Assembly: GCA_963760655.1 (NCBI GenBank)
Contig: CAVXDR010000001.1
Location: 213,007 to 253,006, forward strand
Length of the DNA stretch: 40,000 bases
Direction of reading: 5' to 3'
Source: an uncultured Actinomycetes bacterium
GTDB taxonomy: Bacteria > Actinomycetota > Thermoleophilia > UBA2241
Part shown: in pieces, positions 25,099-35,858 of the stretch
Numbering within the stretch: the stretch's first letter is position 1
Layout of the letters: every line of letters starts with the position of its first letter
The notes under the pieces: model-generated
Seen by the model: the letters and a program-made list of their open reading frames with translations, nothing else
Database searches by the model: none
Told to the model about the DNA's origin: nothing
Made by a program: the position numbers and the translations under genes

Positions 25099-25130
25099 CC
25101 CCCCCACCGGTTGACGGGATAGGAGATAGG
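25099..25130. repeat. Left junction of putative transposon: direct repeat CCC-CCCCACCGGTTGAC followed by 15-bp terminal inverted repeat GGGATAGGAGATAGG
   Basis: 25102-25115 is identical and in direct orientation to 35845-35858. 25116-25130 is the exact reverse complement of 35830-35844. Confidence 0.6.
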
Positions 25131-25361
25131 CGAGAGAAAAGTGAGCTATTGCGTTGCATCGACCGACAACGGGGGCCGCCTCGCCACCGCTTCGCCTTCG
25201 GTCCGGGGTGAGGGCTCACGGGCGACGTGTCCGGGCTGGCTCCGCGCTGCGCGGCGGCTCGCCTACCTGCCGGGGTCGTCGTCGGGGTGACGGGTGAAGA
25301 GGTCGCCCTGGGTTTCCGGTGTGGTCGCCCCGGTGGCGGGGGGGAGCTTGCGTGCCCCGCT

Positions 25362-26423
25362 TCAGTCGCTCGGAATGTTCTTGGCCGCGACTCCACAGAA
25401 AGAGGGGTGAGGAGCCGTCGACTTAGCCAACGTCCAACTCGTGCCACCATCGGTCGTGGCCAAGAGCGCCATGCCGTCCGTGACGACCCAGCCGTGCTGT
25501 TTGTCGGCGAATGAGACCGCGCTCGGATCCCAACCAACAGGCAAGCGGCTGAGCGTCCACGTCTTGCCGCCGTCGGTCGTGCGATAGAGAAGGCCGCCGT
25601 TGCCCACGACCCAGCCGTCGCTCGCATTCACAAACGAGACGCTGTTGAGGCCGTCGTGTGTCCCGGACAACTGCGTGTGCCAGTGCCTGCCGCCGTCGCT
25701 TGTGGCGAGGATGAAACCCGGCTCACCACCGACAATCCAGCCGTGTCGTGCGTCGGTGAATGTCACGTCCGTCGGCAACAGGTCCTTCAAGTCGCGTTGG
25801 ACGCGCCAGTGGGCACCGCCATCGCTTGTCACCAGAATGTCGCCACTCCAGCCCACGGCCCAACCGTGTCGTGCATCGGGAAAGGCGACACCTGTAAGGT
25901 TCTCGAGGCTGCCTTCGTACTGGGTGCGCCACCTCTTGCCGCCGTCGCTGGTGGCGAGGATGATGCCCGGAATCTGCTGGCCCACATTGTCGAAGCCGAC
26001 GACCCAGGCGTGCTCGGCGTCAACTGCCGCCACGGCTACGAGGTTCTCAGCAGATGAGCTGCGCTGCGTGGTCCAAGTCACGCCGCCGTTTGTCGTGGCG
26101 AGGATCGTGCCGCCCTTGCCGACGGCCCAGCCGTGGCGGGCGTCCGCGAAGGCGACGCCGCGCAGAAGCTGGTAGGCGAGGTTTCCGCTTGCGTCCTTGT
26201 GAGCGGTGCGCCAGGTCGCGCCGCCGTTTGTGCTCGTCACAACGAGGCGCGGCATGCCGACGACCCAAACATCGGCACCGGGTCGCACGGAAAGCGGCTG
26301 ACTGGGCGTCGTCATGAGCTTCTCGAACCACGAGGCCATTTGGGGGTGCGATCCGCACGAAGAGGCGCATGCCACGACGACGAGCAAACCGGCGAGTGCC
26401 GTGAGTCGCAGGATGCGCTTCAT
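25362..26423 (-). CDS. Ycf48/Hcf136-like BNR-repeat beta-propeller lipoprotein
   Basis: Signal and lipobox: MKRILRLTALAGLLVVVACASSCG. It carries repeated blades (T/S)xDGGxxW (STNGGATW, TTNGGVTW, TSDGGKRW, TSDGGAHW, TSDGGRHW, TTDGGKTW, TTDGGTSW) interleaved with ARHGWAVG-type strands. Start is preferred at ATG 26423 (SD-like GGTGGG). Confidence 0.8.
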   Translation of the reverse strand: MKRILRLTALAGLLVVVACASSCGSHPQMASWFEKLMTTPSQPLSVRPGADVWVVGMPRLVVTSTNGGATWRTAHKDASGNLAYQLLRGVAFADARHGWAVGKGGTILATTNGGVTWTTQRSSSAENLVAVAAVDAEHAWVVGFDNVGQQIPGIILATSDGGKRWRTQYEGSLENLTGVAFPDARHGWAVGWSGDILVTSDGGAHWRVQRDLKDLLPTDVTFTDARHGWIVGGEPGFILATSDGGRHWHTQLSGTHDGLNSVSFVNASDGWVVGNGGLLYRTTDGGKTWTLSRLPVGWDPSAVSFADKQHGWVVTDGMALLATTDGGTSWTLAKSTAPHPSFCGVAAKNIPSD

Positions 26424-26605
26424 GTCCCACCATATCGGCATTCGTGGTAATCAGCTCAACCAGGGTGCTCGTACCATCATGCTCCCGGCCCGTGGCGAGC
26501 AGGTCCGCCGGGCTCCCCCCGGTGTGGTCGCTCCCGGTGTCGGCGGTGGGCAGGGGGTCGGCGGGTCGACTGGCGCGGGACGTACGAGGACTGGAGTTGG
26601 AGTTC

Positions 26606-26708
26606 CACTGGCGCATTTTCGGCCAGCGCCGCTCGCCAATTACCGACTCGCCGCGCTCGGCCGTCAACCCCGCGAACGCGATACTCAATTACCTCTACGC
26701 ATTACTTG
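26606..26708 (+). pseudogene. Isolated 103-bp fragment of a second, diverged Cas1-family gene
   Basis: It encodes HWRIFGQRRSPITDSPRSAVNPANAILNYLYALL, colinear with aa 32-65 of the Cas1-like ORF at 28029. By manual alignment there are about 15 mismatches in 103 nt. It ends exactly at the IS3 terminus. Confidence 0.6.
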
Positions 26709-26760
26709 TGGAGTTGGAGTTGACCCGCTTTCGTTGACACCCTGAAAGTGGACACCAGCG

Positions 26761-34400: not shown

Positions 34401-35296
34401 GAAGAGGTCGGGTAGAAGCGCGCCTCGATCCAGTCGCCTGAGATCTCAGTCTGGTACTCGAGCATCGAGAAGCGTCCCAGCTCGATCGCCTCGCGGAGGG
34501 CCTTACCCTCGACCGAGTCGCCCAGGGTCGGGGCGAACTCCCAGACGGACCTACCGATGAGCTCCTCGCGACTGCTACGCAGGAGGCGCAGGGCAGCCTC
34601 GTTGAGGTGTTGGTAGCGGTACTCCCAATCGATCACCATGACGAACTCGTCGACCTCGTCGAGCAAAGCTTGCCCGCGGGACTCGCGCTCGCCGGCAGCA
34701 CCGCCGCCATAGGTCTCGAAGGGGATGCCCTCCGGAATGGAGGGCTTACAGCGCGCTTCGGCGTGTCGCGTCATGCGCACCTCGAGGCCACCGTCAACGC
34801 TCAGTTTCAACGAGTCCATGAGCTTGGCGACGATGAACAGGCCGCGGCCGTGGTCGGACAGGACATCGGGCACAGAGTCACGATCGAAGCTCGTTACGTC
34901 GAAGCCTCGGCCGTGGTCTTTGACCACGGCGAGCAGGTCGCCGTTGACGAAGCGCAGCGAGATCTCGATGTCGTGCTCGCTGCCGCTGTGACGGATGGCG
35001 TTGGTCGCGGCCTCCTCGACGCAAAGCACGACGTCGTCGATGACCTCGGGCTCGGTGCAGTACTGGCGCAGGTAGTCACGAATGCGGTCGCGGGCGCGCA
35101 GCAGGTGGGAGGGCTCGGACGGGACGCGGAAGAGCAGGCGCGGTGGCGCGATCTGAGGCTTAACGTCGCTCTGCGACAACTGACTCCCCCGCACGGGCTT
35201 GCTTCGAGGGGAACGAATGGCGCTCAGTGTACGCCGAAGGTACAGGAAGTTGCGACCGTTCCAGGCCTCGAACAACCTTTGTGATGAGTCGCACAA
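31448..35296 (-). CDS. 5' segment of giant sensor: RsbW/SpoIIAB-like Ser kinase (HATPase_c) + 6 PAS + about 4 TM + coiled coil + GAF (interrupted; stop supplied by the IS66 end)
   Basis: The N-terminus has VLCVEEAATNAIRHSG...VKDHGRGFD...DHGRGLFIVAKLMD. Six PAS cores each end in a D(V/I)TERK-type linker. The TM block is RWRVLAGAIAIQSAILLAL...AVWVAAGLLSGFLA. The GAF runs MQTVVEHAVAAVGSDSAMVAL...VLGVIF. The terminal TAA lies inside the IS terminus GCTTAC. The true start may be the TTG at 35179, preceded by GGGGGAG. Confidence 0.85.
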   Translation of the reverse strand: MCDSSQRLFEAWNGRNFLYLRRTLSAIRSPRSKPVRGSQLSQSDVKPQIAPPRLLFRVPSEPSHLLRARDRIRDYLRQYCTEPEVIDDVVLCVEEAATNAIRHSGSEHDIEISLRFVNGDLLAVVKDHGRGFDVTSFDRDSVPDVLSDHGRGLFIVAKLMDSLKLSVDGGLEVRMTRHAEARCKPSIPEGIPFETYGGGAAGERESRGQALLDEVDEFVMVIDWEYRYQHLNEAALRLLRSSREELIGRSVWEFAPTLGDSVEGKALREAIELGRFSMLEYQTEISGDWIEARFYPTSSGVSVFGHEISERKRIEEEREQYFAALRASEAKYRAMVENSTEGIVIGAPEGAFQFANQRMADMLGYSVEELLGMSGSDLVFEGWKPETDDARAELHEGQVLRREVKLRRKDGAVLWSRYSASPLLDAQGNHIANLIMHSDVTERKAAEEALRRSESRYRELVENANSAIVRWSCDGRITFINGYAQRLFGWSAKEAVGKSVNILVPEQESDGTDPTGLVSDIVKHPDRYEHNTNENICRDGRRLWLNWTNRAILDDQGKVAEILAIGNDVTDLKRAEEALLESEGSYRTLFDTMSEGFALDEIICDENGKPYDLRYLSVNPAFERHTGLKAADILGHTTLELFPDAADDPVFEIYGKVALTGEPAHFESQFGPLGRWFEVSAYQTEPGRFATVFIDTTERTLAEQEAKRQAELLDLSFEPIIVWRLGGAIESWNRGAEQLYGYGVEEAIGRVTRDLLRTAFPQPWATIEDALHTRESWEGELVHRAKDGRQVTVASRLQLVVGEDGVERVLESNRDITERKRAEEALRESEENAHLLADVLQKSAMPFGMGAPDGRLLLFNEAFERLTGYSGAELHERALTWSTDLTPPEWRATEATILARAVSERHPVSYEKEYLRKDGSRVPIELLVQPIFDEDGTLLHYRSFVTDISARKQAERALLERETEAARLDEHLPGSRTTRLVDRFRGHRWRVLAGAIAIQSAILLALNSAHSPRHVLGLPGSMIALFSVIAGALAGPPFGALVAIAGGGAFYLTVGGRGSLSTVPTTLISTAVWVAAGLLSGFLAKTLSEQAERRRAAAVALVRADAAREAQLAEQARVEELARRLQLQTEELQAAGEELSTQRDELHERAEREAAAAELTEVLNEMNGLINSTLDSREIMQTVVEHAVAAVGSDSAMVALRHGDDWVAEYGYPEVPGLIHECVRTDEAPFMVMAVTERRPIAIDDCESDPRCLPEVQRRFGVRSVLCIPLIVREEVLGVIFL

Positions 35297-35349
35297 GCTT
35301 GACCGAGGCCCTTACGGCGCGGAGACTGGCGACAACGATCGGGTAGCTG

Positions 35350-35724
35350 ATGGAGTACGAGGTGGCAGACAGTCCGCAGTTCCAGGTCGAGCTCAGTAGG
35401 CCCAGCGCCGACGTCGCCGTCGTTGAGCTGAAGGGCGAGGTCGATCTCTACACCTCGCCTCAGTTCAAGGACGCTCTCTTGCAGGCCATCGGCGAAGGGA
35501 CCGCGCGCGTCGTTGTTGACTTAAGCCAGGTTCGCTTCATCGACTCGACAGGGCTCGGCGTCGTGGTCGGCGGCATCAAGGCGGTCACGGCTCGTGGCGG
35601 CACCCTCGACCTCGTCTGCCCCGAGGGGCGCATCAGGCGCACTTTCGAGATTACGGGTCTGGACCGAATCGTACACATCCACCACTCGCGCAGCGACGCG
35701 CTGGCGGCTACCTCGGGGGACTAG
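35350..35724 (+). CDS. STAS-domain anti-sigma-factor antagonist (SpoIIAA/RsbV-like)
   Basis: VAVVELKGEVDLYTSPQFKDALLQAI...VVVDLSQVRFIDSTGLGVVVGGIK...GTLDLVCPEGRIRRTFEITGLDRI carries the conserved DSTGLG phospho-Ser motif. An alternative start is GTG 35362. It is divergent from the giant kinase/phosphatase gene. Confidence 0.85.
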   Translation: MEYEVADSPQFQVELSRPSADVAVVELKGEVDLYTSPQFKDALLQAIGEGTARVVVDLSQVRFIDSTGLGVVVGGIKAVTARGGTLDLVCPEGRIRRTFEITGLDRIVHIHHSRSDALAATSGD

Positions 35725-35829
35725 CTCAGCAGTCCTTGGCAGCGCGCGGAGCTTTCCGGGTGTCGTTCTGAAGGTGCCAACGACCTTCCTTCTTCCGGTC
35801 TTGTCACGCTAGGGCGCGTTTCGCCGGCC

Positions 35830-35858
35830 CCTATCTCCTATCCCCCCCACCGGTTGAC
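35830..35858. repeat. Right junction of putative transposon: inverted repeat CCTATCTCCTATCCC followed by direct repeat CCCCACCGGTTGAC
   Basis: This is the mirror arrangement of 25099-25130, described there. Confidence 0.6.

Follow-up and report, generated by a model that had tools for sequence, protein, structure and literature searches.

The DNA analyzed here is a 40,000-nt stretch of the genome of an uncultured Actinomycetes bacterium (GCA_963760655.1, contig CAVXDR010000001.1, positions 213,007 to 253,006), referred to below as the window, in which a 10.7-kb unit (25116-35844) lies upstream of ord, the 2,4-diaminopentanoate dehydrogenase gene of an ornithine-degradation operon, which starts at 36154. 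The unit encloses a Cas1-family gene between terminal inverted repeats (TIRs) that are bordered by a 14-bp direct duplication. We consider it, with a probability of roughly 85%, to be what is left of a bacterial family 3 casposon resembling AceAut-C1, or of two fused tandem copies of such an element.

Junctions and Gene Content of the Unit

The left junction reads CCCCCCCACCGGTTGAC (25099-25115) followed by GGGATAGGAGATAGG (25116-25130), and the right junction reads CCTATCTCCTATCCC (35830-35844) followed by CCCCACCGGTTGAC (35845-35858); the coordinates and the mixed inverted and direct geometry given by an initial annotation of this DNA were exact. The 15-mer is inverted between the two junctions and the 14-mer is direct, the direct match reaching 17 nt when the CCC held in common with the repeat tip is included. 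An overlap of a few nucleotides between TIR and target-site duplication (TSD) has been reported for many casposons (PMC4046053). Neither motif has a third site in the 40-kb window with 3 (15-mer) or 2 (14-mer) mismatches allowed, and a scan for TIRs with adjacent direct repeats recovered the same pair. Because a control with the right flank reversed gave 0 matches over all loci scanned, this geometry is not a product of chance. The features of the locus are as follows, with open reading frame abbreviated as ORF, insertion sequence as IS, helix-turn-helix as HTH, and comparison loci and contigs denoted by L numbers.

24904-25101, minus strand: E0, the remnant end of a second, diverged casposon-like element, with the degenerate TIR GGGTACGTAGACGGAGGCACCCGAAGCGGCAC (minus strand, 25101 to 25070); comparison with L087
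25102-25115, plus strand: left 14-bp target-site duplication CCCCACCGGTTGAC; motif scans and TIR/direct-repeat scan
25116-25160, plus strand: left TIR, its first 15 nt GGGATAGGAGATAGG perfect and the remainder a diverged variant; 45-nt end alignments, and an identical TIR and inner flank beside the BNR gene in L087
25362-26441, minus strand: BNR/Ycf48-like propeller gene, a passenger of this casposon lineage; Pfam PSII_BNR, E=2.4e-39
26593-26711, plus strand: 13-nt sequence resembling an IS3 end, TGGAGTTGGAGTT, then a 106-nt fragment of a second cas1 copy, ~85% identical to 28122-28227; repeat comparison
26715-27985, plus strand: IS3-family element with ends TGGAGTTG..., orfA 26761-27063 and orfB 27060-27950; Pfam HTH_Tnp_1 and rve
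27986-29057, plus strand: 3' two thirds of the casposase (Cas1-family) gene, ORF 28029-29057 of 342 aa; Pfam/NCBIfam and family alignment
29070-29897, minus strand: 3' part of a sensor gene (SpoIIE/PP2C domain); Pfam SpoIIE, E=4.5e-45
29898-31451, plus strand: IS66-family element with TIRs GTAAGCGTTCAG... and an 8-bp duplication AAGAAGAT (29890-29897 and 31452-31459); ends read in the sequence
31460-35296, minus strand: 5' part of the sensor gene, with an HATPase_c_2 RsbW-like kinase, five to six PAS domains and GAF; Pfam
35350-35724, plus strand: STAS-domain gene (anti-sigma-antagonist-like), cargo; Pfam STAS, E=1.4e-23
35800-35844, minus strand: right TIR, GGGATAGGAGATAGGGGCCGGCGAAACGCGCCCTAGCGTGACAAG on the minus strand, well conserved; 39-40 of 45 nt identical to TIRs in L005 and in L009, where the element is intact
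35845-35858, plus strand: right 14-bp target-site duplication; motif scans and TIR/direct-repeat scan
35854-35883, plus strand: promoter-like site of the ord operon, TTGACC-N18-TAGCAT, with its -35 box within the duplicated 14-mer; promoter scan

The two IS elements each have their own, different ends, as had been stated beforehand; a reading of both ends of the IS3-family element (26715-27985) showed no target duplication, and the IS66-family element splits what was a single sensor gene. Pfam also confirmed that the cargo concerns signal transduction (one HATPase/PAS/GAF and SpoIIE (PP2C) gene, a STAS gene and a BNR gene), and the Pfam annotation of window ORFs contains no polB between 25116 and 35844, in agreement with the earlier remark that a family B polymerase is missing. 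The BNR gene travels with the casposon lineage, because it is also present in L004, L007, and L087: L004 and L087 have copies 94-97% identical next to casposon genes, and in L007 a homologue follows cas1 immediately downstream. For the PP2C domain of the sensor (29074-29801) there is an inverted paralogue at 19778-20502, with 78% nucleotide identity, 9 kb away and outside the unit.

Intact Relatives and Their Ends

Eighty metagenome loci encoding Cas1 relatives were fetched and all of their ORFs were clustered; by count from the locus table, ~15 of these loci have enough flank on both sides for a whole element. Upstream of cas1, on the opposite strand, proteins of ~160 aa (42 loci), ~145 aa (25 loci), and 1000-1100 aa (38 loci) recur, and a gene of ~340-400 aa lies directly upstream of cas1 on the same strand. 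The largest of these proteins carries exonuclease motifs I-III (FDTET, NLPFD, and YxRxD) and motifs A, B, and C (DFTSMYP, KxLANAxYG, and CDTDS); Pfam PF03175 is matched by 9 of its 17 members, and its profile gave weak matches only against solved structures. Judged by these motifs it is a family B polymerase (PolB), and Kazlauskas et al. named a 'PolB_CDTDS' group for this motif C, one member of which is casposon-encoded (PMC7544198). The small conserved neighbors matched restriction-endonuclease-like, DUF7097, and HTH models weakly and nothing else; profile searches gave no HNH match among them, and PADLOC returned nothing convincing for the conserved neighbors. Between cas1 and the right TIR, intact relatives hold 3.5-8 kb of variable cargo, including restriction-modification systems, methylases, a KAP NTPase, a SNF2 helicase, and NACHT/STAND proteins, and it is this slot that the sensor and STAS genes occupy in the window.

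A search for intact relatives had been proposed by the initial annotation, and a full-length ~510-aa Cas1 was indeed found beside a CDTDS family B polymerase in six independent metagenome loci. The polB-cas1 module is enclosed in six loci by TIRs of 42-109 nt with adjacent direct repeats; the elements measure 12-18 kb, and the duplications, of 12-15 bp, differ in sequence.

L009: element 2596-15029, TIR 109 nt, duplication CGCCCTTCTCTATC
L026: element 1206-18052, TIR 50 nt, duplication TCGGCGGAGGTACC
L063: element 119-17926, TIR 43 nt, duplication TGACCAGGCCCTTTG
L034: element 1652-19477, TIR 42 nt, duplication (G)CAGACCGGTTGAC
L020: element 127-14472, TIR 46 nt, duplication TCAATACAACCC
L086: element 1970-18139, TIR 47 nt, duplication GTCAAAGGCTTAGG

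The TIRs of L009 and L063 start with GGGATAGGAGATAG(G/A) and go on with ...CGAAACGC..., the TIRs in the window start alike, and the window right end GGGATAGGAGATAGGGGCCGGCGAAACGCGCCCTAGCGTGACA is the same as these two TIRs at 37-39 of 45 nt. Because the L009 and L063 TIRs begin in the same way and match the window right end, the 15-mer GGGATAGGAGATAGG is the conserved TIR tip of a large bacterial casposon family, and the 14-mer is the expected duplication. The TIRs of the six loci all start with this sequence or one like it. Further copies of these ends with duplications, which the initial annotation had suggested looking for, do exist elsewhere, and its central proposal of a Cas1-mobilized, casposon-like element with TIRs and a 14-bp TSD gains its support from the same tip bounding intact Cas1 and PolB elements with 12-15-bp TSDs. 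Its description of the TIRs as short (15 bp) needs correction, since 15 nt is only the perfectly matched tip; the right end continues to match the TIRs of intact relatives at 39-40 of its first 45 nt, and the left end is a diverged variant, such that the two TIRs of the window unit agree at 32 of 45 nt overall. Additionally, the pattern CCTATCTCCTATCCCNNNNACCGGT was scanned through the collection of genome contigs and gave 1 match, in L006.

Geometry alone would also be compatible with attL and attR sites of an island that a tyrosine or serine recombinase had integrated, crossover taking place in the 14-mer and the enzyme binding the inverted 15-mer arms, and a phage-integrase gene does lie just outside one junction in L005. 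We regard this as extremely improbable: the Pfam annotation shows no tyrosine or serine recombinase gene inside the unit, the L005 integrase lies outside the repeats, and the ends belong to Cas1/PolB elements whose duplications vary between 12 and 15 bp.

The Cas1-Family Casposase

The Cas1-family ORF had been named as the candidate mobilizing enzyme, and Pfam matches it at 28029-29057; it is, however, truncated, unlike its full-length relatives. The Pfam Cas1 model, 283 positions long, aligned with it over positions 155-267 alone (E=5.5e-24, with a further match to NCBIfam TIGR00287), and because only the C-terminal part of the model is matched the window cas1 is a truncated gene. The ORF starts at about residue 169 of the family, with ~168 N-terminal residues gone. 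Its catalytic residues E3, H86, D98, and E101 are retained, as are the zinc finger and a C-terminal region assigned as HTH by analogy, and it is 78-82% identical to full-length proteins of 509-511 aa. The fragment (P0001) has no entry as a called gene in protein records.

The family to which it belongs comprises more than 1600 homologous proteins, ~510 aa at full length, and the metagenome collection contains more than 500 stretches that match it. In its alignment E172, H255, D267, and E270 are invariant, a CxxC...CxxC motif is present, and the C-terminal region is conserved, and full-length relatives thus have a C-terminal zinc finger and, by analogy, a predicted HTH. As to hosts, the related contig L006 is titled Thermomicrobiales, and the protein P0120 is named Chloroflexota by its source. 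Another member, P0005, is 37% identical to residues 10-206 of the AceAut-C1 casposase (190 aa, E=6e-24; sequence from the supplement of PMC4046053). A profile search of solved structures returned CRISPR Cas1 4n06 (E=1.8e-35) and the Methanosarcina mazei casposase 6opm (E=2.7e-34) as near-equal best matches. A link to CRISPR had been put forward as something to check; a crude repeat scan found no CRISPR-like array in any of the 93 fetched loci, the sole flag in the window (~11140) lying inside an ORF, and neither cas2 nor other cas genes were found among the conserved neighbors of the casposase. Short Cas1 forms (288-293 aa), which appear repeatedly among the homologues, were considered as a distinct class and rejected, the one inspected (L094) being a full-length gene split by a frameshift.

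Target Site and the Island Upstream of ord

That the 14-mer contains TTGAC and that insertion had occurred in the ord promoter were both suggested from the outset. A promoter scan of 500 nt found no promoter-like site other than TTGACC-N18-TAGCAT (35854-35883; 1 found against 0 expected). In L093 and L090, whose Ord proteins are 82% and 86% identical, AddB-AddA lies directly upstream of ord, both promoter boxes (-35 and -10) are conserved in the same position (aligned promoter of L093: GCGACGTTTGACC...TATAGCAT), and there is a single ...GACG(T/G)TTGAC... site with no TIR. Because the 14-mer holds the -35 box and is present once, without the element, in L093 and L090, this comparison shows the predicted insertion target to be the -35 region of the ord promoter-like site, with the putative core promoter kept on the right side. 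The element has in this way separated the predicted ord core promoter from its former upstream DNA. The two loci would represent an orthologous empty site in more distant relatives rather than a precise one in a close relative. On the proposed search for an empty site, a single TTGAC site is seen in distant relatives (Ord 82-86%), and a precise empty site in a close relative was not found. Tandem copies of CGACGG(T/C)TGACGG, three in number, are present in L090 (~9590-9640) upstream of ord and constitute repeated -35-like sites resembling the casposon target.

In the window, AddB (1837-5031) and AddA (ending at 8651) are followed by 27.5 kb before ord, and the 10.7-kb unit forms the right-hand part of this variable island. 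The corresponding distance (8652-36153 in the window) is 0.3-2.3 kb in L093 and L090. Besides the casposon remnant, the extra DNA includes a STAND/AAA_16-TPR gene, KaiC, KaiB-like repeats, the PAS/GAF/PP2C paralogue, and a hexapeptide transferase. Positions 9127-12869 have an inverted homologue in L004, in the DNA that comes after a casposon TIR, and more of the island may be casposon-derived. A third copy of the 14-mer or of the TIR that would mark the far end of the E0 remnant or of the 27.5-kb island was sought and none was found.

A Neighboring Casposon End and Tandem Junctions

E0 abuts the left 14-mer, and ~200 nt of it are ~99% identical to L087, where the same sequence runs into a polB-containing region. 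By manual count, 17 of 28 positions in 25074-25101 are like the right TIR and its inner flank (35817-35844); these 28 nt and the 14-mer are together covered by a 42-nt direct repeat (D13, 74%), and gapped 45-nt alignments of the E0 end with family TIRs agree at 24-31 positions. On these alignments the left flank is itself a casposon end, and the window has a tandem arrangement. Junctions in which one end, a 14-mer, and another end follow each other were also found in L034, L004, L005, and L087, L034 having full TIRs on both sides.

Such junctions are palindromic, and a repetitive extragenic palindromic (REP)-like repeat or regulatory site, built as arm, 14-nt loop, and arm and dispersed between genes in copies that lack different arms, with nothing inserted, was therefore taken seriously. 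Full arm-spacer-arm units do occur at L005 15426-15469, L005 9349-9392, and L004 14830-14873, half units of arm and spacer precede -10-like hexamers in L006 and L005, and what looks like a degenerate arm lies to the left of the left junction. The reading was rejected after intact elements with the same tips had been found, and we now hold it to be largely refuted and highly improbable: the same arm is the tip of 42-109-nt TIRs on intact polB-cas1 elements with unrelated duplications, spacers are identical within a pair and different between pairs, and relatives lack the 27.5 kb at this site. Furthermore, because tandem casposons meet as end, 14-mer, and end, the palindromic units are explained as the expected look of tandem-element junctions, with the full TIRs of L034 as an example. 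The initial annotation had named a common intergenic repeat as something that would count against it; the junction motif does recur in several arrangements, but its copies are casposon ends and tandem junctions.

Within the subgroup that includes the window the 14-mers are alike (nCnCnCnGGTTGAC), namely CCCCACCGGTTGAC, CCGCACAGGTTGAC, GCCCCGCGGTTGAC, CGGAACCGGTTGAC, and GCAGACCGGTTGAC, and where host DNA follows them a -10-like hexamer is located 17-18 nt downstream. One 14-mer recurs at four junctions in one metagenome, and other members of the casposon family have unrelated TSDs. The likeness of the 14-mers and the hexamer spacing fit a site-specific casposase that acts on a -35-like target, and site-specific targeting is described for other casposases (PMC5137440 and PMC8464041).

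Several further observations concern these junctions and the repeats around them. The L087 sequence at ~5291-5320 has the same two ends as window positions 25087-25130, with the 14-mer flipped and 3 differences (GCCCCGCGGTTGAC in L087 versus GTCAACCGGTGGGG in the window, both read in one direction), and independent insertions could be the source of the flipped 14-mer. In L005 (9349-19759), a 10.3-kb unit (9378-19745) without polB has 1.6-kb inverted ends (92% identical), each with the same truncated cas1, as well as a perfect 14-bp duplication CCGCACAGGTTGAC, the internal junction at 15426-15469, and an ABC transporter, the phage-integrase gene lying just outside. A GC-rich repeat family of ~100 nt (...CGCGCTGCGCGGCGGCTCGCCTACCTGCCGGGG...GGGTGACGGGTG...) occurs in both orientations inside or beside casposon DNA (window 23874-24002, 25242-25339, and 26502-26572; L004 1188-1296 and 13544-13652; L005 15616-15708; three sites in L087). 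Near-perfect palindromes of 36-77 nt lie in or beside coding regions of the window at 3986-4040, 7841-7885, 7899-7960, 10752-10787 (a perfect 36-nt palindrome), and 37189-37263.

Decay of the Window Copy

L004, which stems from a related population, is collinear with the window in the same orientation over 25849-26591 (96.6% identity) and 27986-29030 (80.7%), and collinearity breaks at 26591 and 27986. Between these breakpoints L004 holds 9.7 kb with small ORFs, an IS3-family element, the defense gene TIR-TM, polB, three conserved genes, and the 5' third of cas1, whereas the window holds 1.4 kb with the 13-nt IS3-end-like sequence, the 106-nt cas1 piece, and the IS3-family element without target duplication. 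The IS3-family element marks a ~9.7-kb deletion that took the polB module. The suspicion of a decayed casposon, in which an IS3 copy without a TSD may mark a deletion, thus found support, L004 retaining polB and 5' cas1 exactly where the window has IS3; the competing suggestion of a PolB-less Cas1 transposon type not yet described did not. Because polB is absent here yet present in the relatives and in L004, the window unit is a casposon derivative rather than an autonomous casposon, and because the polymerase is gone and the casposase lacks its N-terminal domain the element would be unable to move by itself.

The TIR-TM gene of L004 (3647-4423) lies beside polB (PADLOC, E=8.8e-75), within the BNR-cas1 stretch that is gone from the window. 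A fold-back copy of 27974-29464 in L088 (1-1487), joined there to the reverse of 29485-15265, was treated as a probable assembly chimera and set aside.

By analogy with studied casposases, insertion may have proceeded as follows. The Cas1-family casposase would have bound the GGGATAGGAGATAGG... ends and joined them at staggered positions 14 bp apart in the target CCCCACCGGTTGAC, and gap repair would then have duplicated the 14-mer, the right copy of which still forms TTGACC-N18-TAGCAT before ord. After insertion, a deletion associated with IS3 took out ~9.7 kb, in which lay polB, the three small conserved genes, and cas1 sequence amounting to its 5' third, and an IS66 element split the cargo sensor gene.

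The same breakpoints bear on a second history, in which two related casposons had entered the same regenerated 14-bp site and were fused by the IS3-associated deletion. This would have taken away the right part of the first casposon and the left part of the second along with the 14-mer shared between them, such that the 10.7-kb unit itself never transposed. This history would account for the two TIRs being of different subtypes (32 of 45 nt), with the right TIR matching those of other genomes at 39-40 of 45 nt, for the 106-nt fragment of a second cas1 copy (~85% identical) beside IS3, for the third casposon end abutting the left junction, and for cargo downstream of cas1 that is wholly unlike that of the otherwise collinear L004; tandem arrays with a shared 14-mer are present in L034, L004, L005, and L087, and tandem casposons are documented in M. 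mazei (PMC9939771). On the other hand, the left part of the unit, from BNR as far as cas1, follows the order of the one element in L004, one deletion within an element suffices for the loss of polB, and the TIRs may have diverged by decay or gene conversion. We therefore see the fusion as a possibility of real weight that can be advanced only tentatively.

It is also conceivable that the unit moved as it is, as a non-autonomous, PolB-less casposon derivative mobilized in trans by a full-length casposase, a reading near to the PolB-less type suggested by the initial annotation. The L005 unit at 9378-19745 has the same anatomy, with truncated cas1 copies only, no polB, 1.6-kb inverted ends (92%), and a perfect 14-bp CCGCACAGGTTGAC, and casposases in vitro need only the element ends (PMC6977970). 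Nevertheless, we consider movement in the present form unlikely: IS3 at the deletion point without target duplication, together with the adjacent junk, suggests decay in place, the window TIRs are poorly matched, and no second copy of the unit was found anywhere. A broader and doubtful extension would be that this casposon lineage integrates sequence-specifically into a 14-bp site containing a -35 box (consensus ~ACCGGTTGAC), regenerates that site, and builds end-14-mer-end arrays before host operons, and that derivatives with no polymerase and a defective casposase, such as those in the window and L005, are mobilized in trans and shuttle host-type cargo such as signaling modules and ABC transporters.

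Taken together, these results point to a casposon remnant, and a number of observations weigh against that interpretation. From the window element polB, one of the genes that define a casposon, is missing, and cas1 is truncated. The TIRs of the element agree at 32 of 45 nt where those of intact relatives form near-identical pairs (42-109 nt), and the two ends may never have belonged to one element. In a tblastn search against all casposon loci, no homologues of the cargo sensor and STAS genes were found in other loci of the family; this cargo could be host DNA moved in by rearrangement, or, in view of the nearby PP2C paralogue outside the unit, a host of this lineage may be where the element acquired it. 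The alike and recurring 14-mers are not what a simple TSD model predicts and would fit a site-specific target. CRISPR Cas1 4n06 and casposase 6opm score nearly equally as structural matches. Finally, close relatives yielded no precise empty site, the same-population contigs L001, L088, and L089 all carrying the junctions; exact-protein look-ups of the flanking genes returned only these three and showed no insertion polymorphism.

Comparison With Known Systems

Family 3 casposons are bacterial, have TSDs of 14-15 bp (the published median for casposons is 15), and have a Cas1 that is extended at its C-terminus by zinc-binding and HTH domains (PMC4046053). AceAut-C1 has both of these C-terminal domains and a 15-bp TSD, and NitAL212-C1 has a 14-bp TSD and a TIR that reads GGGGTATGTTAACTTCTCCCAAACGCCG... 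(PMC4046053). The window family likely belongs here, a placement resting on pairwise similarity: it shares the bacterial host, the C-terminal zinc-binding motif and, by analogy, the HTH region, 37% identity to AceAut-C1, TSDs of 14-15 bp, TIRs of tens to hundreds of nucleotides, partial overlap of TIR and TSD, and intergenic insertion. IS elements that parasitize the casposon and varied cargo in intact relatives (methylases, restriction enzymes, KAP ATPase) are further likenesses, and the NitAL212-C1 TIR (GGGGTATG...CCCAAACGCCG) has a GGG start and a AAACGCCG block in common with the window family. In contrast to family 3, the window copy has no polB, retains only the 3' two thirds of cas1, and has mismatched TIRs and a partner-switching-type sensor as cargo; an HNH nuclease is reported in all members of family 3, and none was detected among the conserved neighbors of the window family.

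The unit thus belongs to a known kind of element. Its family has many members but has received little attention in the literature searched, which describes only a handful of bacterial casposons and contains no biochemical work on a family 3 casposase. The family is characterized by a conserved TIR tip and 14-15-bp duplications, and one subgroup apparently prefers a -35-containing target and tends to form tandem arrays. With TIR oligonucleotides and a 14-bp target of defined sequence it offers concrete substrates for tests of a bacterial casposase.

Casposons are regarded as ancestral to the CRISPR adaptation machinery. The casposase shares with Cas1-Cas2 adaptation a homologous enzyme fold, the catalytic residues, and a target duplication of fixed length, whereas the casposon family has no array, cas2, or other cas genes and the DNA it integrates is a 10-18-kb element with TIRs.

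The closest parallel for the arrangement of the locus is found in the tandem arrays of M. mazei (families 2 and 4; Krupovic et al. 2016, as cited in PMC9939771), in which a target is reused and adjacent elements have a shared TSD. The end-14-mer-end junctions in the window (E0 and the unit), L034, L004, and L087 are of the same form. They differ from the M. mazei arrays in the bacterial host, in the casposase family, and in a target that resembles a promoter -35 region rather than the 3' end of a tRNA or protein gene.

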